A DNA stretch of 60,259 nucleotides, filler included, from Aduncisulcus paluster (taxonomy: Eukaryota), in NCBI GenBank assembly GCA_024181965.1. It is 5 parts of 5 records of this genome, joined end to end, with 100 filler letters (N's around TTAATTAATTAA, not from the genome) between each part and the next. Parts side by side here need not be neighbours in the genome. Positions count along the whole stretch, not along the records: positions 22,170 to 41,457 come from BQXS01010823.1; 4 more parts are not named here. One strand, 5' to 3'. Of the stretch, positions 9,473-50,420 are shown in pieces. Below the pieces are notes generated by a model. The model made no database searches. It had not been told where the DNA came from and saw only the letters and a list, made by a program, of their open reading frames with translations. The position numbers and the translations under genes are program-made. Within the stretch, counting starts at the first letter, position 1; each line of letters starts with the position of its first letter.

Positions 9473-9572
9473 NNNNNNNNNNNNNNNNNNNNNNNNNNNN
9501 NNNNNNNNNNNNNNNNTTAATTAATTAANNNNNNNNNNNNNNNNNNNNNNNNNNNNNNNNNNNNNNNNNNNN
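9473..9572. other. Artificial contig spacer (N44-TTAATTAATTAA-N44)
   Basis: Six-frame stop linker flanked by Ns; genes on both sides are truncated. Confidence 0.97.
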
Positions 9573-18872: not shown

Positions 18873-21800
18873 ATGTATATTCGCAATCTAATTCTTGAAG
18901 GATTCAAGAGTTATTCAAAAAAGACGGTTGTAGGAAACCTCAGCCGTCATTTAAATTGTATCACAGGTATGTTTCCGGATTACCTAATTTATATGTGTAA
19001 ATACAGCGTTGCATCTAATATTATTTGTAAATTTTTCTTTTTTAGGGCGAAATGGAAGTGGAAAGTCCAATATTTTTGATGCTTTATGCTTTGTTCTTGG
19101 TCTATCAAAAATCAAACAAATGAGAGCTGATGGCCTACGCGGTTTAGTTTACAATCATGGAAGTACCGGTGTTCAAACAGCTACAGTTTCTCTAGTCCTT
19201 GATAATTCTGATAATTCATCATCTCCCCTGGAATACAAAGGGTGTGATGAGATCACCGTAGTGCGTCAAATTATATTAAAAAGTAACAAATCTCAAACTA
19301 AATGTTTAATCAATGGCAAAGTCAAATCAACAACGGAATTAAAACGTTTTTTCGCAACTGTTCACCTCGATATCGAACATCCCAATTTCCTTATCCTTCA
19401 AGGAACTATCAGACGTATTAAAGACATGAAACCCCTTGAATTGCTTGATTATTTGCAAGAAACAGCAGGAACTAGACAATTTATTGAGGAGAAAGAAAAA
19501 GCCACTCGGGATCTTGAGAAGAAAGAGAAAAAGCTTAAAAGTATTGATGAAATGATAGAACAGCAAATGCAACCCGAATTAGAAAAATTACGAACCCATT
19601 TGGAAGCCCAAAAACGTTTAAAATCCCTTCGACTCGATCTCCAAAGACTCAAAGATAGAAATTTTGCCAGAAGATTCATTGACCTTCAATCTCAGCTCAG
19701 AAACCCCAATAAGTATGCCGAACAATTAAAAAAGCTTGAATTACAAGAGACTTCCATCATAGCTGAGCTTGACAATATTGAATCCATTCTTGAAGAACTT
19801 AGAAGTGAATTGACTGAATCGTTATTGAAAGAAGTGTCGAAGCTGGAGAAACAGATTGAAGATAAGGAAGATGCCCGCGATTCCATGCAAGATCGCCTGA
19901 AGAGGAAAACGGATACATTGAAGCGTCAGAATAGTTCCCTTCATTCATTTTCTTCTAGATCCACAGAGCTCGAGGAAATATTAGCTTCTAAAATGGAATC
20001 CTTGTCTTTTTTAAACACATCTATCTCCTCTCTCAAACACTCGCTTCGCTTAGCCATTGAAAGTGAAAATGTGGCAGATAAGACCCTCCGAGAGCTGATT
20101 GGAGAAATAGGAACTTCAAAGAGCAAGAAGAGCAAGATAAAGAGAAGAGGGAAAAAGTCAAGGAAAGAGGAGGAAGAAGACGAAGAGAGAAGAAGAAGAA
20201 GAAGAAGAAGAAGAAGAAGGACAGACAGTTGTCGATGTATTTGCTGCTTTGCAACGGGATATTGACAAGTTAAGACGTACTATATCGTCTCTGAAAAAGA
20301 AGAAAGAGAAGAGAGATGTAAGGTTAGCTGCAATCTCACAATCAATCAGCACTCAAAAGAAACAAGTCCAGAAAATGAAAGAAACCAAGGTTAAACGGGA
20401 TTCCATAAATGCCCAGATCGCAGAACTTGAGCAGTCCTTGGCCGAGTCTAAGTCAACCACTGAAGATGCTCTCCTTGTGCCCTCTTCTCTGCCTGCTCTC
20501 CTCTCTGAAAGATCAAAGCACCAACGTTCTTCCGCTCAGCTTAGAAGTTCCCTTGATCGTCATTACACTCGTTATAACAAGTCTGCGGTCTCTGGCTCTC
20601 CATCTCACATTGTGTACGGCATTCTTGCCGAGCTCATTGAATGTAAATATCCGGATAATCCCGCCTTTAATCGTGTACTTGAGATTGTTGCTGGTGGTGC
20701 TCTTGAAGCCATTGTTACAAACACCCAAGAGACTGCATCATTACTCGTAGATAAAGGAAAGATGAGCAGACGAACGACTATCCTTCCCTTGAATTCTCTT
20801 CACGTCAAGAAGGCCACTCAGAAAGCCTCTTCTTCTTCTTCCTCATCCAATCCACTCCCGTGTTTAGCATCTAACCTTGTGAGTTACCCTCCTCATCTCA
20901 AACCTGTGGTCGATTATGTATTCGGACGTGTTCTTGTGATCGAAAAGGAAAGTGACGCGAAATTACAGAGATACGCAAGGGTACCAGCGTTTATCACCCT
21001 ATCAGGAACTGAGATTCGAAGAGATGGATTTGTGAAAGGAGGATCAAGGCCATCTGAGGGAAGAGGATCTGGTCATATTATGTCAAGATTCTTGCAACTC
21101 CGACGTGAGAGGAAACTCTTGGAAGAATCACAGGAAAAGATAGAAAAAGAGCAAAGGAGAATCGAACAGAAACGTGAAAGAGAAGTAGAAAAGGAAAAGA
21201 AGGAAGCGAAACTTGCAGAACTTCGCCATTCTTTGGCCTTGTTGGAATCTCCTGATCTCATTGAAATATCTGAACTTATTGAAGAACAAAAACATCTTGA
21301 GAAAGAAAATGAGAAAGATTCCCATAAATTGATAGAATTAGACCAAGAATTGATATCCAAGGAATCTGAGGCGAAATCTCTTGAAAAAGTTGTCAATGCG
21401 TCCACTGAAGAGAAAAAGCAGTTAATTGAAGAAGCAAGAGCAAATAGATTTAAAAAGGGCGACGAGAAACGGAGAATTGAAGCCGATTTGAAGAAAAAAG
21501 TGGCACAAGAAGAAGTATTGAAAGAAGAGATTACTTCTCTTGAGTTAGAGTCAACAAAAGTCAAGGATAAATTGAATGAAATCGATGATTCCATCAAGAC
21601 CCTTTCGAAAGAAATTGAATCACTTGAAAAATCCAAACAAGACATTCAGAATGAGCTTGATATCTTAGTCCCTGAACACTCCTCGCTTGTTCAGAACAAG
21701 CAAGGAAATGAGAAAGAAGCTGCCAACCACGAACAAAGGAAGAGCAAACTGAAAGGAGAATTGGGAGAAATGAAAACAAGAATGGCCGATCTTAAGGAGA

Positions 21801-22069
21801 AAAAGAAAGGCGAGGAAGGTGAGAGGAAGAAAATGGAACTTGAAATGCGCGGAATCATGAAACGTGTTCCTATTTTGGGTAATGAGAAAGTTTTTGAAGG
21901 AGAAGGAAAATTTGCCGATCTTTCTTCCCAGACTAAAACCGACCAAGCCACTGAGTTGGAAGAACTCAAACGAGTGCAGTGTGAGTTCGTGCGACTCGTT
22001 AAGGAATATGGAGGTGAAAATCGTCAAACCCAAAAATCCAAGAAAGACGGAAAGAAGAAGAAGAAAGAT
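18873..22069 (+). CDS. SMC2: Condensin subunit SMC2 (intron 18967-19045; apparent +1 frameshift near 20188; 3'-truncated)
   Basis: MYIRNLILEGFKSY; splicing restores Walker A ITGRNGSGKSNIFDALCFVLG; SMC2-type HPNFLILQGTIRRIKDMKPLELL..ETAGT; coiled coil; hinge LEIVAGGAL...RRTTILPLN...DYVFGRVLV. Confidence 0.9.
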
Positions 22070-22169
22070 NNNNNNNNNNNNNNNNNNNNNNNNNNNNNNN
22101 NNNNNNNNNNNNNTTAATTAATTAANNNNNNNNNNNNNNNNNNNNNNNNNNNNNNNNNNNNNNNNNNNN
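22070..22169. other. Artificial contig spacer
   Basis: N44-TTAATTAATTAA-N44. Confidence 0.97.
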
Positions 22170-22850
22170 GCTCCTAATCCTGGAGCGCGGGACACCACCG
22201 CTTTGAATGTAGTAACGTAATTGATAAATGAAGTGATAGACATGTCGTGTTCCATATGGATGACCGATAATTCCGTGTGTAGGTCAAATGACGAGGAAGG
22301 GGCATCTAATTCAATGAGCTTTTTCTTAAATTCGGCTAGCTCAGACTCATTAGAAATTGTTTTTATACCTGTTACGAGTTGTAGTGCGGCCAAAAGAGGA
22401 GGATCGAAAAGTCGATGCCATTGAGTTGGTCTGATAACAGAGGGATCAGCTTTGTAAGCCTCGTAACGAGTAAAAAATTCGGTCAAATTTTTCAAAGAAT
22501 ACTCCTTTAAAGTAGGAACTTCGACACGAGATGAGGTAATATTGGTCGTGGGGCTTGGCATAACAATAATATTATTGTTGGTTTAATAACCTTTATGATG
22601 ATGGTGGAGCAAATTTACTAGTTTGAGAATAAAAGAATGCGCGAAGAAAGGTAAAATATAGTCTGTAAAGAAACACAAAAACTTTCAAATATGATCTTCG
22701 GTAATAGGATGGTAATAGACATTCTGATATCGAAGTAAATATATTAATTAAAATCGTATTATAAAATATATATTAAATATTCAATAATAATACTCCTTAA
22801 AGAAAATAATAAAAACGTCTGCTTTTGGCAACAGCCGTGTTATTCTAACA
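22170..22850 (-). mobile_element. Putative LTR-retrotransposon 5' end with gag-like ORF (22561 to contig edge)
   Basis: ORF MPSPTT...VPTLKEYSLKNLTEFFTRYEAY...SITSFINYVTTFKAVV resembles a retrotransposon capsid. The minus strand from 22850 begins TGTTAGAATA, a typical LTR start. It sits at a contig end, as repeats often do. No pol gene or second LTR is visible. Confidence 0.45.
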
Positions 22851-22922
22851 AATGATAAAATTGATGAAATTGCCATAAAAATACGGAAAGATGAAGAATT
22901 TGAAGAAGTTGAAAGGGAAGAA

Positions 22923-25900
22923 ATGGTGGTTTCTTCCTCTTCTTCCTCATCTATATTAAAATCTGTTTCTTCTGTTAACTTCTATAATGACCTTTTTGAA
23001 GGACATGACACCGAATCAAAGCAATACAAATTATTTCAAATTATTTTTGACCTTGTTATTCCTCTTTTTGTTCATGATTATAAGCCAACAACGGAGATTA
23101 TTACTGAATTGGAAAAGAAAAGATCTTTGATACAATCCATGATATTTGACGCTAAAGAAGAGAATGAAGATGAAAGATCTGAATTGAAAGATGATTTTCC
23201 TTTTTCTTCTTCATTCAAGCTTCACAATGATACCCACTTTCTCCAGACTTCGCATTTCATTCAAACACCATCCACAGTCTCCAATATAAATACTCTCCTT
23301 CCAGCGATTCTGACTGGATGTCCCATTTCCTTGCTTGGTGAAGCCATGTGTGGGAAAAGTTCCCTTGCAAATCACATTGGAAAGCTAAGAAGAAATCTGT
23401 TTGGCACCAAGTCAAAGATCGAGAGGTTTCAGTGCAACCAAAATTCTGAAAAAGAAGCTATTTTTGGATCTCTTTCTCTCTCAAATTCATTTTCTTACGA
23501 GCTAGGTCCACTCACAAGAGCTATGCATATGGGTCACATATTTATTCTGGAAGACGCTCATTTACTGGAACCTTCGATCCTTCAGCAAATCTCGAATGCT
23601 CTTTCGGTATTTCCTGGCCAACAAGTCCCTTTACCCAACAATAATTCCAAAGTTGTTGTTAGGCATGTCGATTTTATGTTCGTTTGTACAAGCCGTAAAC
23701 CGTTATCAAATGTATTACCATATGTTCCAATCTTGAATATGAACTTATTCAACGAGGCTGATATCATTTCAGTATGTGAATATTATTCGAAATGTGAAAC
23801 TGGGCATAAATATCACCATTTAATTTCTAGACTGTTTTCAACAATGATGAAACAGAACAAAAACCTTTCATTCTCATTCAAAGATGTCAATACACTTCTT
23901 AACAGACTTTCCTATCTCTGTAAAGTGACTAAATTCTATGAGAATTGTGATGTTCCTCACGTTTCCGAGAAACGAACCTTTTTCATTCAGAATGTTGTTC
24001 CTGCGCGCCTTTTTGCACAGCTACTTATCTCAAAGATTCCTCAAACAAAACGAACAGATATATTACCAGATATTTATAGAATTATCGACTCAGTGTGTAA
24101 TTTATCCAGTTCAGATTCAAAATTCAAGGACCAATTTATGAAGACCGAACAATGGATATCTTCTCCTGTTATTGTTGAAAAACATACCAAAATGATCAAG
24201 AAGGGTCATTTATCGATTCCATTAAGTGCCAAAAAGCTTGCCACCCTCACTATTCATCCAAGAATCCTTCAATTAATCTTCCTCCTTGAGTGCACTTCAC
24301 CAATAGAACATGTTCTACTCGTTGGAGAGACAAGTTATAAGTCCAAAGCACTGGCAGATTGGCTGAATCACATTCCAACCAGAGATCATAACATTCCTGT
24401 GTTCGAATTCTCAAGAGAAAGTGAGATATCTTCTATTTTAGGTTCTGAACAACTTCATACACTTCTCCAAATAGATGAAACTTGTGAAATGATGAAAAAA
24501 CAGTTGCAAAATATTGGAGAAGAAAGTTTAACATCAGGAAACCATGTGATATATGAATATATTGACGAATTAAAGAGATTGAAACGTTGTAAGCGTCGTG
24601 ATATTCGTCGTCACAAATCTGATCCATCTTCAAACCAATCCATTGGATTTAACCAATATTGTATGAATTTTGTACCATCGTCCTTGCTGACTCGTGCTGC
24701 GATTGGAAGACCAGCCATTATCAAGAACATTGCTCTCCCACCTGCTTCTGTTGTGGAAAGTTTATGTCCTTTATTGCACCCAGATGGTCCACTATTTGAC
24801 ATTCCAAAGTGTAAATTCTTTTACAATACGAATGGAACACCCAAATCGACAAAACATTGCATGAACACTGCTTCCAGAAGAGATAGATTTTTATTATATG
24901 CCACATGCCATCCAAGGAATTATGATAAACTTTCTCCGGCGATTAAAACAAGAATGACAGTAATTCATGTTGAACCATATTCTTATGATGATATTTCAAT
25001 AGTTATTGAGAATCAGTTTGAAGCCTCGATTGCAAAAATAAGAAAGAAGAACAGTTCCAAAATGTTCGAATTTAAGACATCGATATTTGATCAAGCTAAG
25101 CCCAAATTAGTCGACATTTATGAAAAAGCTTCACATCATATTTCTATTCCTTTCAGATCACTTATTCTTTGGATCGATTCAACAGTCGCTCTTCTTGCTG
25201 AAGGAAATGAAGACGAATCAAAATTATTCGAAGAAGAAGAAGAGGAAGGAAGAGAAGAAAAAAGGGAAGAATTAATTGAAAGAAAATATCCAGATGATGG
25301 AAGAGAGCCCAATATTTCAAGAATTGATATCAGTATTTCGATTTCCTTTGTTCGATCTATTTTAGATGGAATTGATTTTGAAAGTAGAAAGATTCTCTTG
25401 AAAATGCTACTCCAAGAAAATATGCTTCCCAAATCATTTTTGGACATTATTCCTGATCAATTAACCCCTGATAAAGACACACTCCATTCACAATCAGTAT
25501 CCAATGCATTGCAATCATCTTCATATTCACTTCTAGAATCAGTTTCTTCATTGTCATTTGAAGATTATTTCTCGTTAAACATCATTGAGAAGGAATTCAA
25601 TCGATATGTGCATGTTGAAAGCAGAGTTTCTCATTTGGCATTCGATTTCCCAGTTTCTGAATCATATTCTATTCCCAATTTGGATGAGTTTATTTTTGTC
25701 CCAACAATGATTCACATGATGGATGCATTCCTCACTGCTGTAGCCTGTAATTATCCCGTTTTCATCGAATCAGCTCCAGGAATTGGAAAATCTGCTTGTG
25801 CTCAAGTTGTGGCTTCTATTCTTGGTCTTGGTTTCACTCGCTTCAATTTTTCCAATTCCACTTCCCTTGAGGATTTATTTGGAAGATACCAAAGCTTCAA

Positions 25901-28900
25901 GGAGAAGACACGCCATGGTGAAGAAGTTGTACAATTTAGACGTGGAGAAGGGGCGTTGTTGGCTGCCATTGGTAAGTCAAACAAATCAACAACCACAAGT
26001 TCAAGCCCAACTAAAATCATATTATTTGATGAGACAAACCTCGCTCCACCCGAAGTTCTCGATGTGTTACTTCCTATGTGCACAATGTCAAAAAGAACTG
26101 TCACGTGCCCTGATGGTTCCATCATTGATTGTTCCCATGTGCTCATATTTGCAACATTGAATCCTGCAAATATTTCCGGATCAAGAAATCCTATTCCAAT
26201 GTCACTCCAGCAATCTGTATTCTATCTTAATGTTCCTCAATATTCTACCATTGAGTTATTCAATATTGCAAAGGCCAAAATCAGTGAACTGAAAAGCCTT
26301 ACCGAAATCGATCCGGTTTCTAAATTGATTCGTGCCCATGCCACAGCTATGAAGGTAACTAAAAAACAAGGAAAAACTGATTATTCTTCGCTCCGAGAGA
26401 TTATCAAAGTTATTGAGATATTTAATGCGGCGAATGATGCCAATGCCCCATTAGATTTTACATTTATCCTCGATCTTGTTTATTTCTCAAGATTTGACCC
26501 AAGCATGAGGAATGAACTAATGAGAGAAGCCCATATTTCCTCTTCTGCTTCTCAACTATGCAATTCTCTCTTGCAACCCTATCGAGTTCTTTCTAAAGAT
26601 GGAAGAATCAGCCTTCATTTTGGTCGTGCGAGAATTGATTGTACTGATTGGATCTCAAATAGAGATCTTGCCAAGTTTGCCACATTCAAAATTGGTGAAC
26701 ATATCCCCATTCCTCACTCCCTTTCATCCCAACAACTGGTCGTGATGGAAAAGATGGCGAGCATCATACCAACGAAACGAGCCATCCTTTTGCTTGGAAG
26801 CAGTGGTTCTGGCAAGTCTTTCTTGGTGGAGACTATGGCACATGTGTGTCAAAAGAAGCTAAGGGTTATCCAATTGAACAGCGAATCTGAGATTGGTTCT
26901 ATTGTTGGAAGATTGGAGCCAACACCACCAGAAGGACAGGAAAAGATAACAAATCTGATCGTGGAAGCCATTCAAATTGTATTATCCCCATTCTCTCGTT
27001 TGGACAGATCTCTAAAATCGGATGCTCAAAAAAAGATAAGAATTTTGCTTAAATATATTCCAGATTTGTTGCATGAAAATATGACAACAAGAAAGACCAC
27101 CCTATTGAATTGTGTTGGAATATTCCCTGAGTTCAGGCGATCTCTTGAGGCATGTGAAACGTTCATTCAACAATCAAAGGCCAATTTCCAATTCGTTGAG
27201 TCTATTCTCATTGATGCGATGGAACAAGGTGACTTCTTCCTCCTTGATAATCTCCAAGCAGCCCCTTCAGATGTTTGTGAGAGATTGAACTCGTTGATTG
27301 AGGAAAAACAAAGATTGTATTTGTTTGAAAAGGATTCAAAGACTATTTATGTGGAAAATCCACAGAAACCTGGAGAAAAACCTATTCACAAAGATTTTCG
27401 ACTCTTCATGACCGCAGATCCTTCACGAACAGGGGCCCATGCCATTCCACCTAGTTTCATGTCTCGATGCATTGCAATTTCGACTTCCAAGCTTGTTCCA
27501 GACTTATCAATAACTTCCTCTGATTCGATATCTGAGGGTTCTGCTTCTTCCCGGTCAACATTGACATCAGTTTCGAATGACCAATTTATGAGTAGTCATG
27601 AACAGTTTGTTGCTAAAAACCTGGTAGAAATTGCAGCGAGATCAATGTATGTTAGAGATGGGATATTTGCAAATAACAAACAACTTTCTCTTGATTATGG
27701 ATCAGCTCTTGCATGTGCCTTTGCCAATATCAACAAATTGTGGTGTCTTTCTCCACCATCAGATTGCACGACCCAATTTAGTGTTCGATCATTCTTCCAC
27801 ACTTTACAATCTTTTGATATCATAATGAGAAAACAAAGATCTCTTCCTGAATCTGAAAGAAGTGATCCTGTCGAAGTTTTAAGATTTGTTTTGTCACACC
27901 ACTACATTTCAATGAGTGAAGAAATGGACTACCAAAAAAAGGCAACAAAACATATCCTTGAGGATGTTGTAAAGAATTATAACTCCTTGAAATCTGTTCA
28001 ATTTGAAGAAAAACACGATGTATTCATGGAATTTGACAAAAATATTGCCAATTTTGAGATTCATTGTTTATCCAATTTGCATGGTTTAAAACAGAAAAAA
28101 GATAAAAATACTGAGGGGGAAAAGGATCAAGATGAATCAAAATCTGTTAAGGTTTTATTTTCTTCCCCCCGTTGGGATTTTGAAATGTTTTGTTCAACAA
28201 CATCAATATTGGAATATCTCCAAGATCAAGATAATGAGGAAAAATATGAATATGTCCATTTAATTCGAAATGGTGAATCCCATGAGGCTTCTTCGAACCC
28301 ATATTCTTCGTCCCGTCAAAGGCATTCCAAACCAACCAATGATATGCTTGATCAACAGAAGAATCATGACATTTTCCAGCGTTTTGAAAAAGTTATGAAA
28401 CATTCCACCCCGACGGTGTCTTTTGAGGATACTATTTCTAAAATTAGAGATATTATGATCAGCATGTTAAACAGTCTTCTTCACCAATCCATCCCACTTG
28501 AAGAGTTCATTTTACGTTTCAATGAAATGAAAGTATCAGCAGTATCATTTGTTAACATTTCCAATAGCAATGCCCATATCAAGAAAATGAATGAAAGATT
28601 TTCAATGTTGGTCTGCCAAATGTTGTATCCTTTATTCACTCTCATTGAATATTCATTGAGGAAATATCAGGAAATATATACCCCATTGTCATCTATTTCA
28701 GAACATAACCCTGATCATTATGAGTTGGAAGATTCTGAAGAGCCAGAAGAGGAAGGACAAGTTGTTAAATTCAAAGATACCCATAGAGAAGAAAGATCAT
28801 TAAACCCCCTGAATCTAGACAAATCATCGGCCCTCCAATGGCGTGTTGATTCATATACTCGCCAATTCATTACCAATTCTACATCTTCTTCTTCCTCTTG

Positions 28901-31900
28901 TTTACTTCCATCAACTTCCTTCATGTATCCGACTATCCTTCTTGCTTCAGTCCAGTACGCATTTAGGATTTTTCAAAATCATCAAATGCAAGAGGGAGAC
29001 AAGTTCATAATTGAAAAGACTTTTCTTCAATTGATGATTGATCAAGAGTTCCTCAAATTGGTATGTATTGATAATCTCTCAGATGCTCAAATTTGCTCTT
29101 TATTGATGGCTTTTTATGTGGGAACCAATGACTTTAAAACTGTAAAAAGCACTGATCTTGAACTCACGAGCAAGACTTTATCAATAATGCTCAAAATCAC
29201 ACCTTCTTTACGAATTCTTGGCAAATATGGAATAATATCAGTCTCAATTGTTAATGTAGACAAGAGTGATGATCCCAATGAGAGAAATGGAAATCCCGAG
29301 GCTGGTCAACTGTTTATTTACCTTGACAAACATAAAATCACAAGGATAGCTTTCCAGAGATCGCATGAGTTTGGAGGAGATGGATTGATTTGTGATTATA
29401 AAGATCCTCAGTTTAAATCGTTGCGCTTGACCCCGGTTGATTTTATAAGATGTGTTTCAGTAAGTTTGTCCCAACAAGTTAAAAAGCAGAAGAAATCAAA
29501 GAAATTCGAGTCAAAGATTCTCAAATTGTCCATCCCCGCTTCTTCCATTTCTAAAGAAGCAGTTAAGCAACTTCCAAAACAATCTGTTCAAAAAATTCCT
29601 AAGTATGATTTGTATTTCCAACAAATTCCTCAAAATTTCTTCAAATTTGATCAAAGAACAAAACTCGCAAAATCTGATTTCTTGTCAATTGTTTCTCTCA
29701 TGTTTCTTGTTCCTCGTGAGAATATGATCTTCTTTGATCCTTTCCTCAAGAGTTCTCTGATCCATCCAATGCATTCTGAGATATTTTTGAATATTTCAGA
29801 GATATACAACGATTTATCCATCAATTTAACTGATATCTCCATGTCAGCAACTTCATTTGCTCAGAATTTATCTAGATGTGTCCACGATTTGCATTTATTT
29901 GATGATATTGTGTTTCCACAATACCGTATGACCTTTAATATATACCAAAAACGTGATAATATCATTGGTCCATTATGTACACACAAAGATAAAACATTTC
30001 AAGAGATAGTTTCAACTCTTTTTGGCCCAATAGAATCTGCTGAACGTATTTCTCAAATTAATCAATTGGATGAGATAATTCTCAACATTCATAAATGGAC
30101 GGTTGAGAAAATAGGAATTCATTGCTCCTCATTCGAAACTCTTGTAAAATTGTTCCAGAAATTGAAACAAGAATCGAATGAAGAAGGGCTTGAAAAATTG
30201 AAAGTGTCAGAAGAAACAAAAAAGTTGAAAACATGTATGGCCATTTTGAAAGAGAAAATTTCCGAACTTCAAATCGAGCTCAAACATTCAAGATCATTCC
30301 AGAGATTGAAAGAAATTTCTGAAAAATTGTCTAAAAAAGTTGAAAAACTTATGGAAGAAGAAAATGAAGGAATGTGTGATAATATCGCCGGAAAAATCCA
30401 AGAATTAATGTTGAAATATGAAGAAGTGAAAGATAACTTGGAAATTTTAATGATGAAATTCTCAACATTCATAAATGGACGGTTGAGAAAATAGGAATTC
30501 ATTGCTCCTCATTCGAAACTCTTGTAAAATTGTTCCAGAAATTGAAACAAGAATCGAATGAAGAAGGGCTTGAAAAATTGAAAGTGTCAGAAGAAACAAA
30601 AAAGTTGAAAACATGTATGGCCATTTTGAAAGAGAAAATTTCCGAACTTCAAATCGAGCTCAAACATTCAAGATCATTCCAGAGATTGAAAGAAATTTCT
30701 GAAAAATTGTCTAAAAAAGTTGAAAAACTTATGGAAGAAGAAAATGAAGGAATGTGTGATAATATCGCCGGAAAAATCCAAGAATTAATGTTGAAATATG
30801 AAGAAGTGAAAGATAACTTGGAAATTTTAATGATGAAATTCTCNNNNNNNNNNNNNNNNNNNNATGAGATAATTCTCAACATTCATAAATGGACGGTTGA
30901 GAAAATAGGAATTCATTGCTCCTCATTCGAAACTCTTGTAAAATTGTTCCAGAAATTGAAACAAGAATCGAATGAAGAAGGGCTTGAAAAATTGAAAGTG
31001 TCAGAAGAAACAAAAAAGTTGAAAACATGTATGGCCATTTTGAAAGAGAAAATTTCCGAACTTCAAATCGAGCTCAAACATTCAAGATCATTCCAGAAAT
31101 TGAAACAAGAATCGAATGAAGAAGGGCTTGAAAAATTGAAAGTGTCAGAAGAAACAAAAAAGTTGAAAACATGTATGGCCATTTTGAAAGAGAAAATTTC
31201 CGAACTTCAAATCGAGCTCAAACATTCAAGATCATTCCAGAGATTGAAAGAAATTTCTGAAAAATTGTCTAAAAAAGTTGAAAAACTTATGGAAGAAGAA
31301 AATGAAGGAATGTGTGATAATATCGCCGGAAAAATCCAAGAATTAATGTTGAAATATGAAGAAGTGAAAGATAACTTGGAAATTTTAATGATGAAATTCT
31401 CAAATTCGCACCACAACACCCCCAAAGGTGAATCTGATCTTGGAATTTTATGGAAAGCAATGATTTCTAAGATTAAATCTTCGAAACCCAAGAAAATAGC
31501 CCTTTTCACTCGATTCAGAAGATTATTTAATGTTCAATATTATATTTCCAAATTGACCCCCTTAAACCAGATTGATGATCCATTGCATTGTGAAGGTTCA
31601 TATTCCACGTTAAAGGCTCGAGAATATATGATGAAAACTATTAATATTCTAGAATCGATTGTTCCTCAAAAATCTTCAAATCTTCAAAAACTAAAATCCA
31701 ATTTGAATCATTTCATTGATTGTTTAATGGATGAAATTCGTAATGATGATCTTGTTCGGGCTTGTGACGCAATTCTAACTTGGCTTAAACTATGGTCTTT
31801 GAAAGGATTTCTTGATGAATTGAAGAAATATGATTTTTCGAAATCAGTTTTGAATCACTTTCAATCATTCCTTTCTCTAGCAAAAGAAATTAGAATTCAT

Positions 31901-34900
31901 GACACCTCCATCATGTCATGTTCTTATGAGTTTATCATCAATCCTCCCTCCGATTTGAATATTCGGAATATGCTTGGATTCTTTTCAAAACCCTTATTTG
32001 AAAATCCAAAGGCCAAATTTATCCCCAAAAGACTCGGATTAGGAGATTTTGATTCAAATATAGATTCTAATATAAATTATTTGAAGAATTTATATATAGA
32101 ATACTCGGATATACTTGCAAAAAAATTGAAATTTGAGGAATCTGACCCTTGTTCAATGTCAAATCCAAAACATAATACGCTTATTCAGCTATTCTGTATT
32201 GAAACCGATGTTCCTTTTGAAAATGTTAATGTTGATCCATCCAAATTCGAACCTGTCAGTTTCCCACTAACATATATTGTTTTGCGGGCTATTTCAAAGC
32301 AATATCACACCGATCTTTCTATTTCTACTCTTCCAAAAAGTCACACCGATCCACCTCTTCCGTTATTCGTTAAAGACTTTGCACGATCAGTTTTACTCGA
32401 ATCTATTGAGGCTTCTCCAACAAAGTCAACATGTATGGATAGAATCAGTGGAAATAGCGATGTTCTTTTGCTTTTCTCTTTGTTCAAAGGCCAGGCATTT
32501 GTGAAATCGAAAGATTTATTTATTTATGAGTTGATAAATCAATTATCTGAAGCTCCAAAGAAATCTTTATCAAAATTGGAGAGAGATAATGGAAAGTTTA
32601 ATCACCTTGTAAGGAACTTTTTATCACATGAATCTGGAAGAATGTTCTTCAGAATGCGAGAAAATTTGGAATATATAATTAGAAATCCCCAAATTCTTGA
32701 TGATATTAACCCTTACGGGAAACCCACAAAATCCCTAGATGAAGATCAAATGCAAGATATGGTTATATTTTCTCCCCTTGCGGCATACATCAGACAATTC
32801 AAAGAATATCTAGTGGAAAATGAAAGGGAACACCGTTGTTATATGGAGCGTCTCGATCAAAAGTTGAAGGAATTATTAACAATTTCCCAAGTTCAGAGAA
32901 AAGTAATCCAAGAATTTCAAGAATCTGTAAAATCCAATTTTGAAATATGGTCAAAAGAATTATATGACCGAGAAAAGGAAAGATTTGATGAAGATCGCAC
33001 GCAGAGAGAGTGGATGAATATTATCGGATCTTTGAAGGCTATCAAGGATGTTTGGGATGGAATGAAAGAAGAACTCGGAACATATTCATTCAATGTTACG
33101 TGTAATGTTGATAAAGATGGAAAATTTAATGCTCATGCATCAGTCATTTCCTTGGGAAGGATGAAAAAGGCTTTCAATACAGTTAAATCATTTCTCTCGT
33201 TCCTTTCCAGATCTCGTGCAAAGCTCCAGTCTGTTATAACTCTTTCAAGTGATCCGTTTTGTACTCTTAAAACGATTCCATCTATTCTAGAAACTCTCTC
33301 ACGACATTTCCGTGACATTCCTAAGCGTGAATACCGTTTCCTATGTATTCATGTGAAGGAAAGATGTAGCAAAATCACTGTCCAATTTAAGAAATCCAAT
33401 GTCACCTTTGAAAACAAGGCTGGAGATATTCCAAACCTTATTTTCATAATTCCCGTGAATATGAAGAATACTGAGTTTCCAGAAGTATCCCCCAAATCTG
33501 CGGAATTATGTTGGATCACTGTTCCTCCCTTTTATTTTGAAAGTGACTCATTATCATCAATTGAGACTGTAGAACCCAAACAACTTTCTGTTCCTCTTGA
33601 GTTTTATCCAATTTTGGAAAGACAATCATTGCTCGATTACTATTCTAAATTCATCAAAACTTTTGAAATCTATGAGAGTTTCACGAAAGATTGTGAGTTA
33701 CATCTTCCCTATGATATTGGCAATATTGAAAAATGTGAAAATACTCTAAGACATCTTACCAGTGAAAAAGGGAAGCTTGAAAACATTGTACGTAATCTTT
33801 CAACAGCAAGAGATAGCATAAAAGATCCTTCAGAGCATCAATTTGAAGTATTTCAATTGAAATCTTCAAAATCATCCCCAATTCATATCGATACATCAAA
33901 AATAGAGTCAAAGATTCAGGTTATCGACGGCAAATTTAATTGTAAATCAGTATTAATTCCCATAATTGAACCTATATTTAGCTGCTATCGATTCCTTGAG
34001 GAAGAATCACTCTGTTCGATTTTAATACACAATTCACAAGATTACTCAAATATCACATTTTCCCATCAACCTAGATCCGATTCAATGATCTCTCTTGATG
34101 AAGAGGAAAAAGAAGAGGATGAAAAAGAGAAGGAATCTGTTACTATTGACCCAGAAAGATTTTTCTCTCTTTCTCAAAATTTATCAAAAAGGTCCAAATC
34201 AAATAACATTGAAATTTTAATTCAGTTCAATGGATGTGAAGTTCCTGCAATAGATTCTGAGAAACTAATTGAGGAATATCATGCTCTAAAAATAGAATTC
34301 CCTGATCATACATCTGCTATTCTTCCAATTAAGATTCAGTCGAAAATAGTTCCAAATATTGTTTCGCTTTGCTTTGAATCTTCCTCAAAAACGTTTGGAA
34401 TGAAAGATAACAAAATTATGTTTGAAGGCGATTTGCCATTGAAATTCAAAATCTCTCGGCCTGAGGGATATTTGCCCGATATTTTTAGATTTTACGCTGA
34501 TGTTTCTCCAAATATTGGGAATTTCTATCCTCAATGCGTGTGGACAGTTAAGACTGATATTGTTTCCATAAAACCTAAACAAGAGTTAAAATATGGAAAA
34601 TATTTATACATTAATTCCATTTCTTCTTGTTCTCTTCCCAATATGTCCATTAAAGGTGCGATCTCAAAGTCAAAGAGGATAGTTTTATGTGGGATATATG
34701 AAAAAAAAGGATATTACAACTATAAATTTGAGGAATTGAAAAAAATATCGTGTTCAACTTATAGTGGATATAAATGGTTTAAGTTATTTATGTATAATGG
34801 ATTGGATGAAGATCATAAGTTTATGATACGTGCTGAATCTAAAGATCTTAAACCAGCAATATACATGTTCAAAACAGATTTTGTTAAGAAAGGTGAATGG

Positions 34901-37900
34901 ATAGAATTTAAGCTAGAAATTTATGTTCCTTTCACTTATTCCTCAACCATGAAACAGTATAATTTGAAGTTTCATATTGAGTATGGAAATAGTGATCCCA
35001 TTCATTTTGATATTCCTGTCATTTCAGAACCCCATTCTGGATCAAATCCTATGAATTGGACACCTCGACACCATTTTGATTTAGAAAAGGAGAAATCCAA
35101 TCTTTTGTCTCATCTTTTGCAAACCGAAAAGAAATCCTCATCTCCTAAATCCAAACAATCTGATTTCTCTGGAGCTTCCCATCCTCATTCTTCTCAAAAG
35201 AAGTATTTTAGGAACAAAAAAGAAATATCAAAAGAAGAATTTGAATCTGAATCCTCAAAAATTTCTCCATGTGATTCGAGTGGTTTTTCCAAATATCCCA
35301 AACTTGAACTCGCCAAACAAAGAGATTATTCCCTTCCAAATCCATCCATTTCCATTCAAAAGCTCGAAGAGAAACGATCACCAAAATTATTGAGAAACAT
35401 TCAAGGAATTTATGAATTTTGGAATGAATTGGACCATTTCATTGGAAAGATTGATGAGTATGTTTCATGTATCCAGATCTTTGATTCAGATGAAGAAAAG
35501 AAGAAATATATTGACCAACTTGAGGAATTGTTTTTGTATATTCAACAAATATGGGTTCGTTCATCTGTTGCTCAATGCCCCATAAAATCAATCCTTGACC
35601 AAAAGATTGCAACCTCAAAGAAAAAAGTTGATGGAATTGTTTCAAAGAGTTCACCTAGTCATGTACAGAAAAACTCTATTCTTTCCCCTTGCAAGCGTAT
35701 TTCCTCTGGATTAATTGAACTCTCCAAGTCAAATAATGCAAGTTCTGATGTTGTTGATCCAACAAACCACAAAGATAATTCCATATCTTCCTCTAACTCC
35801 CAAGGTCCATCAAAAAGTCGTATTAATTCCAACATTCGCATGGATGGTTCAATTAGTTCCAAAGTTGTCGGTGGAAGTTTATCAATTCGAAGCTCTCAAC
35901 TGTCAAGATCTCTCGGAGGAGATTCAAAAACGCGATCAATTCACGCGAAAGACACAAAATTATTCAGGATATCAAGACCTTTCAAACCTTCTGAAAGTGA
36001 AAAAGAAGCCCTTAAGATGTTTGATCAAAGTCAGTGTTTTTCTCTTGATGTATTGCAAAAATTGACAAAAGAACAAGAGGAAATAATTCGTGACTCGAAA
36101 GATATTTCACTCAAAACCACAGTCAATGAAAGTGTTTCCATAATTCGAAGTGATTCTTCCTCCAAGAATCCGCAAACTCCCGATGAATATTATGCTCGAA
36201 CATTATCAATTCTCAGTGAAGTTCAGACTTCAGAGGAAGATGGAGTTCCTTGGATTGTCAAACGTTCCTTGGATCAAACAGATATCAAAGGCAAAAAGGA
36301 ATTAGTTTCTTTGATCTCTTTTAATGATGATGATGATGAAATTGAGGCAGATAGTTTTGAGAATGTTCGTTCTATCATGAAATATGTCCAACCGATGGTG
36401 GACAAATTGGTTGGACATGTCTGTCAGCAAAGAAAAGATGGCAAAATAACATTCGATTCAACTGATGTTGTGTTGGCAATTGATACTCACAAGTTTCTCA
36501 AAGACGAAATCCACTCTGTTGTGCTGATGGTTTTCATATATTCATGTGTTTTACATCATCTTGAGCAACGATATTCAATTGTTTTGTTCGGGGATCATTA
36601 CCATCAGTTTGTTGTGAAGTCTATCCATGAACCCCATTCAGATGAAGCCTTACAACGTTTTATCGATGCTTTCACTGCTGCAAACTGTCTGATCACATTC
36701 CCTCTCGATTGTTTCAGTTTTATTGAGACAAAATGTGGATTTGGCAAGATTGGAGAAGAAGAAGAAAAAATGGGAAAAGAAGAGGGAAGAAGAAGGAAAA
36801 TGTGACTGGGAATCCTCCTCAAACTCCGGTTTTTCCACCATTCTAATTAGTTCGTGTCTGTCTCTTCATGTCGTAAATTCAAATTGCCATTTTGGGGGGG
36901 AATACGATTGGAATAAGATATTTACTGGGAATTCTCTTGACATAATTGTTGTTAATCTTCTCCAAGAAGAAAAGAATAGGTCTCATCTTGAAGCATGTCT
37001 CTCAAAAATCCCAGCTAAATCTGAAACTTCCCGTCGAATCCGATATCATTCGCTTGATATCAGTGATATTCGTAAAATGTTCTTTGAAAAAACGGATTTA
37101 ACAAGATTCCAGAAATGTGATCCTTTGAGTAGAATTTTATGTTATTCGATACATCGTGAACTCAAACCAAAGATCGAAATTGAAGCAATTTCAAAGGATT
37201 TGATTGATACTTTCATTGAATCATGTGCCAGCGATTTGTCGAAAGGAATTTCCATATCTTCTCCAATATTTTCTAAATTTAACCATAAAACCATGTCTAG
37301 AATTAGCAAAGATGTGGATATCTCATTTATAAATAGCGATTTATCAGTGATCAAGCCAGTGTTACCATTAATTAGAAGTGATGTGCTTATCCTACCCAAA
37401 GAAGAAGATCTTCACCAAATAACTATAGAAATGACACTTCAAGATCCAATCAAAGCTCTCCCTTCAAGATTATTTCAGCTCTCTCCAGCTCACATGNNNN
37501 NNNNNNNNNNNNNNNNATATCTTCTCCAATATTTTCTAAATTTAACCATAAAACCATGTCTAGAATTAGCAAAGATGTGGATATCTCATTTATAAATAGC
37601 GATTTATCAGTGATCAAGCCAGTGTTACCATTAATTAGAAGTGATGTGCTTATCCTACCCAAAGAAGAAGATCTTCACCAAATAACTATAGAAATGACAC
37701 TTCAAGATCCAATCAAAGCTCTCCCTTCAAGATTATTTCAGCTCTCTCCAGCTCACATGATCTTCTTGAACACTCAAGCTGCTCAACTTGGAAATTCTAT
37801 TAAACCAAACAAGGCCACATCCATGATTTCTTCAAATTCAGGGACTGAGATTGATTTCCACAAGTTATTTATGGCTCTGATGGGAAGTATGGAGACGAAG

Positions 37901-40549
37901 ATTTTCAAACGTAAGGCTGGAAATAAGATTAGAGTTTATTCGATTTCCCTGGTTCTTGATTTATCTCCCAGTACAGTTTGTTCAACAAATCTCTATCATA
38001 CTATTTTTACTTTCATCTTTGCACTGAACCTTCTTTCACGTCTCACCATCCCCCATGTTGATGTGATCATTTGCAGTGACAGACCCTATCTTGTACACAA
38101 AGATGCAAAACCAGAGACCATTCTAAAACCATCCTCAGATCTATGGCTCGCCCTAGGGTATGCAGTGTCTGTTGCAACAATGTATGGTGGCGATTCACTC
38201 GCCAAAGGAATGTTAATGGCACTCACTTTGCAATCATATCGAACATGTCCCAGTGTACTATATTCTCCAGTTTCTCAGAAGTCAATCTGGTGTTTTACCG
38301 ATGGAAATATTGGACCTCTACCCCGTTGTCTCATTCATTCTTGTCAACATCGAGCTTATATTGTTGACATTGATGTGATTGGGATTGGACTTGGAATTCA
38401 AGGATCTATATGTCTTGAATATGCATTCCAAAGATGCTGTTACTCTGTGAATCCCGAAGAACTCGGAGAAGCTATCGATTGCATGTATAATCCGAAAACG
38501 AACAAATACAAAAAACCGCATTTCATGATTAGATGTTCAGAATTTCAAGATATTGGGGATATCAAGAAGATAATTTCATGTAAACCTCGGAATTCATACT
38601 TGGCAGATTCTGTTAAAAGGCATTGTAGATCTGTTAATACTTGGTTTGGAGGAGATAGATTAAATCACAAAGCCTTTTCAAAGGATGCCATTGGCGAGGG
38701 AGGTTCCGGAAATATCGAAGATGCTGATGCTTATCGAGATGGTGCTTTCGAGGGTTTCTCGATTCTTGTCTGTATGTTTTATTCCAATTCCGATCGTTCC
38801 AGTGTTGATGCAAATATCTCTGAAGATGTTTTTAGAAATGGTTTGAAAGGCGGTGCTTCTCCTTTCAAATCAATGCAAAGGAAAGGATTTTCAGTCACTA
38901 TTGTAAAAACCTATTCATCTGCCATCAAAGAGCTTGACAAAGGTTCTCATTGTGTTTGTATGGTGTTATCGAGTGCCGGGTTCCAAGACAGCGTATCTGA
39001 TGGAAAATATGCCCAAGAATTCATTCGTTGTTTGAATTTGTATTGGCAACAGGGTGGATGTTTGTTCTTGTTTGGAGAGAACGATCCTTTCTTCTTTGAA
39101 GTTAACATGTTTCTGGCTCAAGCCAAATTTGAAACAGAAAGAGGAATCAGATCATGTGGATTCAAATTATACGGAAATTGGGAAGGAGCCAAAAGATCCA
39201 AAACATGGATTGAAGACAAAGGAGCATCAAGTTCTATGCTCTCGAGAGGTACATTCTGTGCACAAACATCAATTCGTGTTGGAAGGAGACAAATTCCAGC
39301 AGTTCGAGGGGGATTGCGAAGAATTTTCGAAGGCAATACGATTGCAATGTTCAGTGAACATTCTGAGGAGAAAATGTATCCTTTTGTTCCATTTGCCATN
39401 NNNNNNNNNNNNNNNNNNNTTGGAGAGAACGATCCTTTCTTCTTTGAAGTTAACATGTTTCTGGCTCAAGCCAAATTTGAAACAGAAAGAGGAATCAGAT
39501 CATGTGGATTCAAATTATACGGAAAGTGGGAAGGAGCCAAAAGATCCAAAACATGGATTGAAGACAAAGGAGCATCAAGTTCTATGCTCTCGAGAGGTAC
39601 ATTCTGTGCACAAACATCAATTCGTGTTGGAAGGAGACAAATTCCAGCAGTTCGAGGGGGATTGCGAAGAATTTTCGAAGGCATTACGATTGCAATGTTC
39701 AGTGAACATTCTGAGGAGAAAATGTATCCTTTTGTTCCATTTGCCATGAACACGAGTTCGGATACTTCCAAGCAATCACCCACAATTGCTTATTACATAG
39801 CGAATCCCGAAAGGACAAAACAAGGAAGCATCATTATTGACACAGCTTTCACAAAACTCTTCCAAGATTATGGTGAAGATGGAACTGCAAGGTGGATTAT
39901 TAATGCAGTTGGATTTTTGGCCGATAGATTCATTGAACGAGATTATGATTCATCATGTGAGAGTTCAAGCATTCTGAAACCTCTTGGATTTCGCCACAAT
40001 CTATTTGCCACCTTTTCAAAGTTTACTCCAAAGGCATCAATTGGTCATGCACGTGTGCATTCTATCTTGATGCTTGATCATTCTGGTTCAATGAGAGGAA
40101 GTATGGGTAATTTACAAGATGCAGTGAATTCTTATTGTCATGAAAGAAGGAGAATGGGTGGAGATGAATATCTGACCGTTATTATGTTCCAAAGTTCTGC
40201 AACCTTACTTTACAGACAAATCAGATTATCATCAATCTCTCATGTTCAATTACCCAGGGCTGGAGGAGGTACAAGTTTTGCTCCTGCAATTCAGATGGGA
40301 AGGAGTATGATTTTATCAAACTTTTCCAATGTGTTTATTTTATTCACCGATGGAGATAATGGCGATCACCCAAGTACCCTGTCTGAAGTAAGATGTCTCA
40401 AGGGGCATAATCATGTTCTTCATACGATTGGAATTGGTGGAGAAGGCCATTTGCGAGAATATGCAAGTCAAACTGGTGGAAGATATCAATGTGGAAGTGC
40501 TACGGGACTTATTAGTATATTTACCAGTCTGGCCCAATTTGTTTGTTAA
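22923..40549 (+). CDS. Giant midasin-like AAA+ ATPase with multiple vWA domains, ~5,360 aa after removing assembly duplications and one +1 frameshift; probably 5'-incomplete
   Basis: Four AAA modules (GEAMCGKSS at 23337, GETSYKSK at 24324, ESAPGIGKS/ILFDETN at 25767, GSSGSGKS/FLLDNL..ERLNSLIE at 26796); long helical linker; vWA-type segments DVVLAIDT, YSISLVLDLSPS..FTDG and MLDHSGSM..GGGTSF..FTDG. The ORF-track pieces join in frame once 938, 1, 263 and 348 nt are removed (16,077 nt). Confidence 0.8.
30078..31400 (+). repeat. Identical 380-bp tandem copies plus a 144-bp partial copy around a 20-N gap (likely assembly artefact)
   Basis: CTCAACATTC occurs at 30081, 30461 and 30875. Junctions fall on microhomologies AATTCTCAA and TTCCAGA, and the 380-bp period breaks the frame. 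Confidence 0.85.
37254..37759 (+). repeat. 243-bp duplication flanking a 20-N gap (unmerged overlap)
   Basis: 37254-37496 reappears at 37517-37759. Confidence 0.9.
39072..39747 (+). repeat. 328-bp duplication flanking a 20-N gap (unmerged overlap, two mismatches)
   Basis: 39072-39399 reappears at 39420-39747; the copies differ at AAT/AAG and AAT/ATT. Confidence 0.9.
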
Positions 40550-41083
40550 ACAAAAAATACAGTGTCTCACATCTCGAAGAAGAAATTTAAAATAAATAAA
40601 TAGCGATAAATTAGGATTTTATTGAACCTTTGCCCCATGAATTTGTATATAATCCTTTTATCAAGGAGATAATCCCCTGCACCAATGGATAAATTTATCG
40701 CATAGTTTCCATTTTTTAACTCGGGGGGGTTTATTCAATTGTGATTAGCATATTGTCATGGTCCATGGATGACAGAATATAAATCTTTATTATTTATTTT
40801 ATTTTATAATTATAATCTGATATTATAATTAACATTTATACTTCGTTATAATGTCTTAACTCGATGTTCGGAAGGTCAAGCTTTTTGTGTTTTGAAAACT
40901 AGAGTTTTTGTATCTCTATTTGGCGCGAACATGGAACAAAGAATAAATTTGCTTACAGCCATATGTCGTTATCTCTGAGATAGAAACGGTAGCAATTTAT
41001 TGAAAGTAAACGGAAGGACATCAGGTCTATAAATAGAACACTGAGAAACCTACACTTCCACCCCAGAACTGAGGTTCCTTCTG

Positions 41084-41457: not shown

Positions 41458-41557
41458 NNNNNNNNNNNNNNNNNNNNNNNNNNNNNNNNNNNNNNNNNNN
41501 NTTAATTAATTAANNNNNNNNNNNNNNNNNNNNNNNNNNNNNNNNNNNNNNNNNNNN
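41458..41557. other. Artificial contig spacer
   Basis: N44-TTAATTAATTAA-N44. Confidence 0.97.
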
Positions 41558-50320: not shown

Positions 50321-50420
50321 NNNNNNNNNNNNNNNNNNNNNNNNNNNNNNNNNNNNNNNNNNNNTTAATTAATTAANNNNNNNNNNNNNNNNNNNNNNNN
50401 NNNNNNNNNNNNNNNNNNNN
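50321..50420. other. Artificial contig spacer
   Basis: N44-TTAATTAATTAA-N44. Confidence 0.97.

Follow-up and report, generated by a model that had tools for sequence, protein, structure and literature searches.

Is the giant AAA+ protein encoded at positions 22923-40549 of a DNA stretch from Aduncisulcus paluster the midasin (MDN1) of ribosome biogenesis, or a midasin-like machine that serves another task? The stretch, called the window below, has 60,259 nt and joins five parts of the assembly GCA_024181965.1; the part that holds the gene comes from BQXS01010823.1. The protein consists of an AAA+ head, a very long middle region and a C-terminal cargo of three von Willebrand factor A (vWA) domains and one ThuA-fold domain. 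We consider it probable that this is a working member of the metamonad branch of a non-canonical midasin-like lineage, an ATP-driven puller whose end with metal-ion-dependent adhesion sites (MIDAS) would grip a partner.

The first point concerns the gene itself. A sequence-only reading of the window had joined four consecutive plus-strand open reading frames (ORFs) across 22923-40549 into one protein of about 5,360 residues, and this reconstruction holds. Three runs of 20 N lie within the gene (30844-30863, 37497-37516 and 39400-39419), and the peptide translated before each gap is the same as the peptide after it. At the DNA level, 37254-37496 is 100% identical to 37517-37759 and 39072-39371 is 99% identical to 39420-39719, both duplicated around an N gap, while a 300-nt unit is found again at 30070, 30450, 30864 and 31008. 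Contigs of two public runs were placed on 22800-40700, one of DNA (X1) and one that we guess to be RNA (X2). X1 possibly comes from the source sample of the window and then stands for a separate assembly (a Logan contig), not for separate data. A single X1 contig of 16,223 nt spans window positions 22822-40591, with joints from 30152 to 31091 (938 nt left out), 37253 to 37517 (263 nt) and 39178 to 39527 (348 nt). The stretches it omits are exactly the duplicated ones, and it carries an additional AA after 36785. Corrected in this way, the pieces follow each other in one frame without a stop, for 2410+1898+1+156+554+340 = 5,359 residues. Because the contig skips the duplicates and restores the frame, three of the breaks go back to overlaps left unmerged at 20-N gaps, and the fourth to the loss of 2 nt from a purine run. 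The ORF pieces are thus assembly artefacts, not exons, and the region is one intact nuclear gene of A. paluster, a free-living flagellate. A 31-nt GT..AG intron at 36687-36717 was considered as the cause of the frame change and ruled out, since the two extra A residues after 36785 restore the frame. The features at this level are as follows.

22923..40549, + strand: whole coding region; the true ORF of 5,359 codons leaves out 30153-31090, 37254-37516 and 39179-39526 and gains 2 nt after 36785
30153..31090, no strand: assembly artefact, near-identical copies around the N gap 30844-30863
37254..37516, no strand: assembly artefact, 243-nt exact duplicate plus 20 N
39179..39526, no strand: assembly artefact, 328-nt duplicate plus 20 N
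22637..22834, + strand: possible 14-nt first exon with its ATG at 22637, followed by a 184-nt GT..AG intron at 22651-22834, implied by the N-terminus MREES... of the public protein model

An offset of 380 nt within the first artefact leads to a false stop at 30494. A 144-nt (48-residue) unit, QKLKQESNEEGLEKLKVSEETKKLKTCMAILKEKISELQIELKHSRSF, is present in two tandem copies at 31008-31295 of the window and in one copy in the X1 contig. Since assembly from k-mers can collapse tandem repeats, the count of this unit is 1 or 2, and the true protein length is 5,359 or 5,407 residues accordingly. The public model, "hypothetical protein ADUPG1_007858 [Aduncisulcus paluster]" (P0016, 4,619 aa), is 100% identical in a protein search; it ends at the frameshift of the window and is thereby truncated. 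Its residues 5-60 map to 22833-23000.

The relatives of the protein define a family that extends beyond A. paluster. Residues 441-1600 served as the query for an exhaustive HMMER search of 1.84 billion representatives, and 1,717 proteins matched at E<=1e-3. The only close ones were P0016 and another A. paluster protein, ADUPG1_008580 (P0017, 4,676 aa, partial); next came a Kipferlia protein (P0052, E 3e-77) and then a midasin continuum. P0017 is 57% identical in the head and aligns over nearly the whole length (45% identity over our residues 38-2556, 37% over 2897-5172). It is open at the N-terminus, with an acidic 228-residue extension. A word-indexed search with the head retained 11 of 6,523 candidates in the near length class, all midasin-like where named, and 36 of 451 in the longer class, including P0016 and P0017. 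The sequence matches in the PDB were midasins only (five of five distinct sequences, E 2e-47). Names were looked up for 30 of the matched proteins. P0052 (6,414 aa) is Kipferlia bialata KIPB_000761, which carries the automatic UniRef name Midasin; P0183 (5,566 aa) is Tritrichomonas foetus TRFO_17377; and P0219 (5,802 aa), found with the cargo of the paralogue as query, represents a cluster that includes a Tritrichomonas musculus protein. All three have six AAA modules, and the full cargo is common to all members. Three further matches (P0056, P0065 and P0076) are partial A. paluster proteins, with P0065 and P0076 overlapping at 99%; P0056 and P0065/P0076 show 34-40% identity to our protein and 22-30% to Kipferlia or canonical midasins. 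Because P0017 is joined by these fragments, sequence comparison gives at least three paralogues in A. paluster. VWA8 was absent from the named matches, most of the 150 listed matches bearing no name and no direct comparison having been made. No published description of the family was found in the literature searched.

The AAA+ head comprises four modules.

23211..24236, + strand: AAA_5 module 1 (residues 97-438; Walker A GEAMCGKS, Walker B IFILED, E-D); Pfam E 1.3e-9
24237..25637, + strand: degenerate AAA module 2 (residues 439-905; GETSYKSK, with IIKNIA replacing Walker B); no Pfam match, 15 bits with the hidden Markov model (HMM) of the AAA4 class
25638..26687, + strand: AAA_5 module 3, AAA5-like (residues 906-1255; SAPGIGKS, IILFDET); Pfam E 2.2e-9, AAA5 HMM 52 bits
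26688..27722, + strand: AAA_5 module 4 (residues 1256-1600; GSSGSGKS, FFLLDN, D-N); Pfam E 2.6e-18, AAA6 HMM 70 bits

The AAA_5 profile reached 132 bits against a gathering cut-off of 22. Three modules match it singly (residues 137-257, 947-1095 and 1284-1516) and the degenerate one lies between the first two; its counterpart in the paralogue scores 31 bits with the AAA4-class HMM. As had been read from the motifs, the DE of Walker B is intact in the third module alone, module 1 having ED, module 2 being dead and module 4 having DN. From these motifs, ATP hydrolysis would be expected of module 3 only, with two further modules keeping a P-loop. The four modules correspond to modules 3, 4, 5 and 6 of the six-module relatives, as indicated by the alignment (module 1 aligns to P0052 907-1499) and by the motif of the dead module 4 of the family, RPAIIKNIALP / TPLILRNVALP / KSLILKNIAQP, which our protein shares with Kipferlia and Tritrichomonas. 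Modules 1 and 2 of the family may have been lost here, lie on a missing exon or be encoded elsewhere; in the window, tblastn with these modules of Kipferlia and T. foetus detected the known modules only. Among 16 canonical midasins, AAA1 has E-D and AAA6 has D-N. The E-D of our module 1 was considered as a canonical AAA1 signature and this was dropped, since its homologue in Kipferlia and Tritrichomonas, their module 3, reads D-E.

The conserved C-terminal ~1,200 residues contain vWA1, a spacer, a lead-in with vWA2, the ThuA-fold domain and vWA3, in an order common to all members.

36368..37178, + strand: vWA1 (residues 4170-4440), from the family alignment and hhalign; interrupted by the 2-nt deletion after 36785
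37799..38641, + strand: lead-in and vWA2 of the midasin M-domain type (residues 4560-4840; DLSPS, TDG), from the M-domain HMM and the fold of a paralogue model
38669..39178, + strand: ThuA/GATase1-fold domain, first part (residues 4850-5019), from the alignment and the fold of the paralogue model
39527..40024, + strand: ThuA/GATase1-fold domain, second part (residues 5020-5185), on the same basis
40025..40549, + strand: vWA3 (residues 5186-5359; DHSGS, GGGTS, TDGD), followed by the stop codon; Pfam VWA_2 E 1.4e-6, VWA E 1.4e-4

Residues 4170-5298 align with Kipferlia P0052 5268-6350 at 25% identity (E 3e-68). In none of the six aligned rows did a Pfam family cover vWA1, vWA2 or the ThuA-fold domain; with the cargo as query, BLASTP against three midasin matches gave nothing significant, and a search against PDB sequences nothing useful. 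The domain at the very end is the plainest: VWA_2 matches vWA3 at 29.4 bits, against a cut-off of 27, and all MIDAS motifs are present, so that the intact final vWA domain proposed earlier stands. The degenerate vWA domain that had been placed at about 36460 is our vWA1. It finds support in the family alignment, in hhalign with the canonical M-domain (E 0.002) and in a 3.7-bit match of the M-domain HMM, all of them weak signals and with no Pfam match. Its MIDAS is degenerate in our protein (DTHKF, with STILISS for TDG), the corresponding residues being DLSRT in Kipferlia and DCSST in T. foetus.

The second vWA domain had been described as preceded by a midasin-like lead-in, and this description is borne out. 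The lead-in, IKPNKATSMISSNSG.EIDFHKLFMALMGSMETKIFKRKAGNKIRVYSISLVLDLSPS, is nearly invariant between our protein and P0017. KIF.RK and DxSxS lie as far apart in it as KIWLRR and DxSxS do in 32 canonical midasin tails. The MIDAS motif varies within the family as DLSPS, DLSDS or DCSIS, plus TDG, and our vWA2 shows no clear Thr. The canonical M-domain HMM matches vWA2 and its lead-in in Kipferlia (18.4 bits, independent E-value 4e-7), in the T. musculus-like protein (9e-6) and in T. foetus (2e-5). Compared with all matched proteins, vWA2 found P0017, P0052 and P0183 and, weakly, the M-domain of Pneumocystis midasin (E 3.6e-4), while the ThuA-fold segment found three proteins only: P0017, P0052 (E 3e-41) and P0183 (E 3e-29).

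A structure was modelled for residues 4040-4676 of P0017, since the copy of vWA2 and the ThuA-fold domain in the window is split by a gap; the input alignment included both window pieces. The predicted local distance difference test (pLDDT) score was 60-79 in the vWA core and 67-89 in the second domain. Foldseek ranked vWA domains at the top, with CMG2 at E 3e-6, the MIDAS domain of human MDN1 third (E 5e-6) and that of Rea1 at rank 30; for the second domain it returned the N-terminal domain of IFT52 (E 2e-5), STM3548 and ThuA-like proteins, in a range to 1.5e-4. A search independent of Foldseek gave Z 12-14.8 for vWA2, including 13.7 for NorD and 12.5 for the MIDAS of MDN1, and for model residues 350-620 it gave Z 13.9 for ThuA-like 1t0b, 12.8 for GATase1-like 3rht, 12.6 for STM3548 and 12.3 for IFT52. 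The GATase-like domain of the sequence-only reading is therefore confirmed at the level of the fold. No Cys is invariant in the six rows of the ThuA-fold alignment. The invariant residues are the N, P, E, N, F and L of D/E-N-x-P-F-x2-E-x-N-x-F-L, in addition to an I-x-E-G-x-T motif. The N-x-P-x3-E-x-N-x-F-L motif presumably sits at the position of the nucleophile Cys of amidotransferases. The domain would be a non-catalytic docking domain and no amidotransferase. A search of the Atlas with the ThuA-fold part gave bacterial clusters at 0.94 and DUF2194 and DUF4960 at 0.90, which serve as leads only.

Between head and cargo lie about 2,500 residues that evolve fast.

27723..30152, + strand: middle region, first part (residues 1601-2410); no Pfam or PDB match; coiled-coil-like at its end
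31091..36367, + strand: middle region, remainder (residues 2411-4169); no Pfam match, no PDB match, 18-34% identity to the paralogue

Identity to P0017, taken per 100 residues, ranges from 55 to 80% for the head and from 45 to 67% for the last 1,000 residues, with 18-34% for the middle; in the first part of the middle (residues 1601-2410) it is 18-58%, and residues ~2560-2900 have no counterpart in the paralogue. For the helical linker of the earlier reading, an obvious coiled-coil-like stretch was seen. The Ig-like beta-rich segments of that reading were not confirmed: an AlphaFold model of 33848-35440 had a mean pLDDT of 30, with no assignable fold. A sequence search of the PDB with 30866-36685 gave no useful match for the middle region. 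The protein contains no transmembrane-like segment.

How do these features compare with those of midasin (Rea1, Mdn1, MDN1; 6i26, 6or5, 6qta, 8ql1)? Both proteins are giants with AAA_5 modules of alternating odd and even type, a last module with the D-N of AAA6, a long non-AAA middle part and a vWA domain with a KI[WF]x[RK][RK]...DxSxS lead-in at equal spacing. Canonical midasin acts on pre-60S particles and binds UBL domains, those of Ytm1/WDR12 and Rsa4/NLE1. A first rival explanation is that we are dealing with a true, extremely diverged metamonad orthologue of MDN1 that still strips assembly factors from pre-60S particles, with domains added behind its M-domain and duplicated in Aduncisulcus. 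In its favour, every sequence relative that bears a name and lies outside the family is a midasin, UniRef calls the Kipferlia member 'Midasin', the Kipferlia and Tritrichomonas proteins have six alternating modules with a last pair resembling AAA5-6, and vWA2 is of the M-domain type. We nevertheless judge it unlikely. In BLASTP, similarity to the linker or tail of yeast-type midasin was found in none of four family members, against six of six (tail, E 1e-46 to 1e-83) and five of six (linker) divergent canonical controls (Babesia, Galdieria, Percolomonas, Hyaloperonospora, Trichuris and olive). Class HMMs for AAA1 to AAA6 were built from the 16 canonical midasins. In the Percolomonas and Babesia controls, each module scored far higher with its cognate class than with any other (e.g. 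487 vs 128 bits). In our protein the scores were 25 bits for AAA1, 15 for AAA4, 52 for AAA5 vs 35 for AAA3, and 70 for AAA6 vs 61 for AAA4; the alternation of odd and even modules is kept and the one-to-one correspondence is not. The Asp/Glu-rich tract is absent as well, with no window of at least 30% D+E and a maximum of 27% in one window inside module 2, as opposed to 11 windows in each of two canonical midasins. Instead of six tandem AAA_5 modules, the gene as assembled has four, with one of them live; the M-type vWA2, weakly similar, is not terminal but internal, after another vWA domain and before the ThuA-fold domain and a third vWA domain; and instead of a single copy, the same genome holds P0017, P0056 and P0065/P0076 besides. 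These comparisons support the view that the protein is midasin-related and does not behave as the canonical MDN1 of ribosome biogenesis.

The position of the family was examined in trees of the last AAA pair. In every six-module protein, an HMM of this pair scores the last pair far higher than the remaining ones, and the six-module proteins for this reason share a six-module ancestor with midasin. The trees came from quick searches and were rooted on canonical AAA3-4 pairs; neither contains Babesia or P0151. Tree 1 (LG+G4) has 39 rows, P0048 and P0008 having been dropped as too short. Tree 2 (LG+C20+F+G4, with posterior mean site frequencies) has 35 rows and omits the three middle pairs as well as P0050, the best pair of which grouped with the outgroup. 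Canonical midasins form a clade of 13 rows with branch support (SH-aLRT) of 96 and 82 in trees 1 and 2, and a separate non-canonical clade holds 17 rows (99 and 100). Within the latter, one group consists of five metamonad and two metagenome proteins (7 rows, SH-aLRT 99). The other holds Flectonema neradi P0182 and rotifer-type proteins from Brachionus, Adineta and Rotaria together with five unnamed proteins from ENA, Logan and JGI. The phylogeny of the AAA domains thus places our protein with non-canonical giants, as the idea of a paralogue implied, with the caveat of long branches. Forcing the metamonad and canonical rows together was 95 log-likelihood units worse (approximately unbiased (AU) test, p 1.2e-5, for a group named after the tree had been seen), which speaks against the MDN1 orthologue.

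Several points weigh against our own reading and are gathered here. The non-canonical clade joins long, compositionally odd branches, so that the AU test, with its group chosen in hindsight, has to be read with care. None of the 30 name-checked matches is a canonical metamonad midasin, which fits a family that itself fills the place of MDN1; on the other side, and against such an orthologue, a canonical midasin has reportedly been described in Giardia, by Garbarino and Gibbons in 2002. The M-domain character of vWA2 is marginal in our protein and in P0017, where the canonical HMM gives 2.9 and 3.7 bits, and the whole-sequence E-values (over 6 targets) are 2.4e-4 and 2e-3, respectively. With hhalign, vWA2 matches the canonical M-domain at a marginal E of 0.009, vWA1 doing so at the E of 0.002 given above, both in register; the ThuA-fold domain, as a control, gave E 0.24. 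The structure model is that of a segment of the paralogue, from 6 rows and with a mean pLDDT of 57, and the fold of vWA2 is no nearer to the MIDAS of Rea1 (Z 13.4) than to other vWA domains (up to 14.8). X2, the sole run labelled as RNA, gave a few small contigs. Finally, four modules on one chain are too few to build, unaided, the six-module ring known for this class, so that either the N-terminus is incomplete or the mechanism is different.

Outside the metamonads, the closest parallel is provided by giant proteins of rotifers (P0055, P0061, P0116, P0102, P0204). For the last AAA pair they belong to the same non-canonical clade, they carry several C-terminal vWA domains, two of them of the M-domain type, and their terminal vWA resembles vWA3, which matches the C-termini of Rotaria giants at E 4e-13. 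They differ in having six modules and an N-terminal extension of ~700 residues, and show no match to the ThuA-fold domain or vWA2 of the family at E<=1e-3. A Rotaria protein of 7,479 residues is described with 'partial similarity to midasin' and a function not known (PMC7943196). In the C-terminal 1,200 residues of Rotaria P0207 / P0204 we observed four vWA domains, two of which score 51 bits each with the HMM of the canonical M-domain; because of these two matches, the duplication of the M-domain is common to the rotifer giants and the metamonad family. The Flectonema neradi transcript (P0182, 3,715 aa) has six modules, followed by a match to the NAD:arginine ADP-ribosyltransferase family ART (PF01129) at residues 2735-2912 (E 3e-5). 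The cargo of the non-canonical clade thus seems exchangeable. The giants P0055, P0110, P0173, P0120 and P0070 were considered as possibly bacterial; this was dropped, as they group with Rotaria, Adineta and Brachionus, and they are treated as rotifer-type. The two metagenome proteins that group with the metamonads (P0184 and P0121, from JGI) have cargo regions without a match to ours and may come from uncultured relatives.

With respect to mechanism, the bacterial pairs of MoxR AAA+ ATPases and vWA proteins (NorQ/NorD, CbbQ/CbbO, BatA/BatB) are instructive. Their ATPases belong to the same AAA_5/AAA_3 class, they follow the same logic of an ATPase with a MIDAS gripper, and vWA2 has the vWA domain of NorD (9qh8_G, Z 13.7) and BatB (3ibs, Z 12.7) among its matches by fold. 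Unlike our protein, in which everything is on one chain with a giant spacer, they are small proteins on separate chains and assemble as homo-hexamers. By analogy with midasin and the MoxR-vWA pairs, ATP turnover in the head would move the long middle part, the MIDAS sites of vWA2 and vWA3 might grip an acidic residue of a target, and the gripped target could then be pulled out of a larger assembly. This target is probably not the pre-60S ribosome. The ThuA-fold domain would offer a docking surface, as in IFT52, rather than amidotransferase activity. It resembles non-catalytic ThuA-like and GATase1-like domains (1t0b, 3rht, 2gk3) and the GIFT domain of IFT52 (5fms, 8bd7) in fold (Z 12-14, over 200-219 residues), and differs from them in the lack of any family match at the sequence level and in its place between two vWA domains of an AAA+ giant.

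In published comparative work, bacterial MoxR-vWA systems reportedly have a role in conflict. The sequence-only reading had suggested a midasin paralogue repurposed, possibly for defence or remodelling. The linker, tail, D/E content, tree and paralogues support a relative of midasin that does not behave as the canonical MDN1, whereas no evidence points to defence. As a rival explanation, defence would make the protein a eukaryotic counterpart of the NTPase-vWA conflict systems of bacteria. It would then be an immune or antagonistic machine, with a middle and cargo that diversify in an arms race. Several diverged paralogues in one genome, the fast-evolving middle region and the variable cargo of clade relatives, from the four vWA domains of Rotaria P0207 to the ART match of Flectonema P0182, are what such a machine would lead one to expect. 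We regard it as quite improbable, as Pfam detected no effector domain in the protein, the other genes nearby in the window are ordinary housekeeping genes, and conservation of the cargo between fornicates and parabasalids points to a housekeeping partner.

The surroundings of the gene bear on one more possibility. The other genes of the window are ordinary nuclear ones: the largest subunit of RNA polymerase, a class I tRNA synthetase, a WD40 protein, an SMC-like gene, a phosphorylase, a pseudouridine synthase, a gamma-tubulin complex component, actin and a kinase. The SMC-like gene (SMC_N, then SMC_hinge) occupies 19009-22117 on the + strand in two overlapping frames, 19009-20265 and 20249-22117, and enters an N block without its C-terminal head; it is probably another case of an assembly frameshift combined with a truncated or interrupted gene. 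These upstream ORFs had been candidates for the missing N-terminal AAA modules, which their identity as an SMC-like gene ruled out. Just upstream of the giant gene, on the - strand, is an ORF of 147 codons (22118-22561) with no Pfam match, which is presumably Gag-like, to judge by its appearance. The stretch at 22800-22850 that abuts the 5′ end of the gene has a contig depth of 9307 (bin 22800-23396) as compared to 1266 in the gene; as this is ~7 times higher, the stretch is a repeat, and may be the mark of a mobile-element insertion or of a scaffold join. An identical pattern of 44 N, 12 bases and 44 N occurs four times in the window (9473-9572, 22070-22169, 41458-41557 and 50321-50420), each time at or just past the end of a long ORF and in a layout unlike the 20-N gaps of the gene. 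These patterns may be masking, scaffolding marks or a left-out element.

The high-depth repeat and the unannotated ORF on the other strand could indicate a decaying copy, or one borne by a mobile element, rather than a working cellular gene; giant retrotransposons of planarians carry midasin-like ORFs, and midasin homology is reported for a Burro-like element (PMC6431247). This explanation appears highly improbable to us. The 16 kb ORF is uninterrupted once the assembly errors are removed, conservation with respect to the paralogue follows the domains, full-length relatives exist in other genera, and no reverse transcriptase, integrase or Gag match to Pfam was found in or beside the gene.

We thus keep to the reading of a working gene in the metamonad branch of a non-canonical midasin-like lineage. 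A wider proposal, which we advance with considerable doubt, is that this lineage is a second old eukaryotic midasin type beside MDN1. It would survive in rotifers and metamonads as well as in at least one euglenozoan-like protist, its M-domains being duplicated and its cargo changeable, and would have been reduced in Aduncisulcus to a four-module chain with one live site. If this is true, the four-module chain would either close its ring with a separately encoded partner of two modules or work in some form other than a six-module ring, which would break the rule of the hexameric ring for this class. The forms with six and with four modules, and with one to three live sites, would be natural variants for studying what the ring requires. 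The truncated public model and the automatic name 'Midasin' of the Kipferlia protein may mislead surveys of ribosome-biogenesis genes. Midasin is usually seen as a single, universal motor of ribosome assembly; if a sister family is conserved and has a cargo of its own, with two M-type vWA domains, a ThuA-fold domain and a third vWA domain, then this pulling machine was probably given another job in anaerobic flagellates, including the animal parasites Tritrichomonas.

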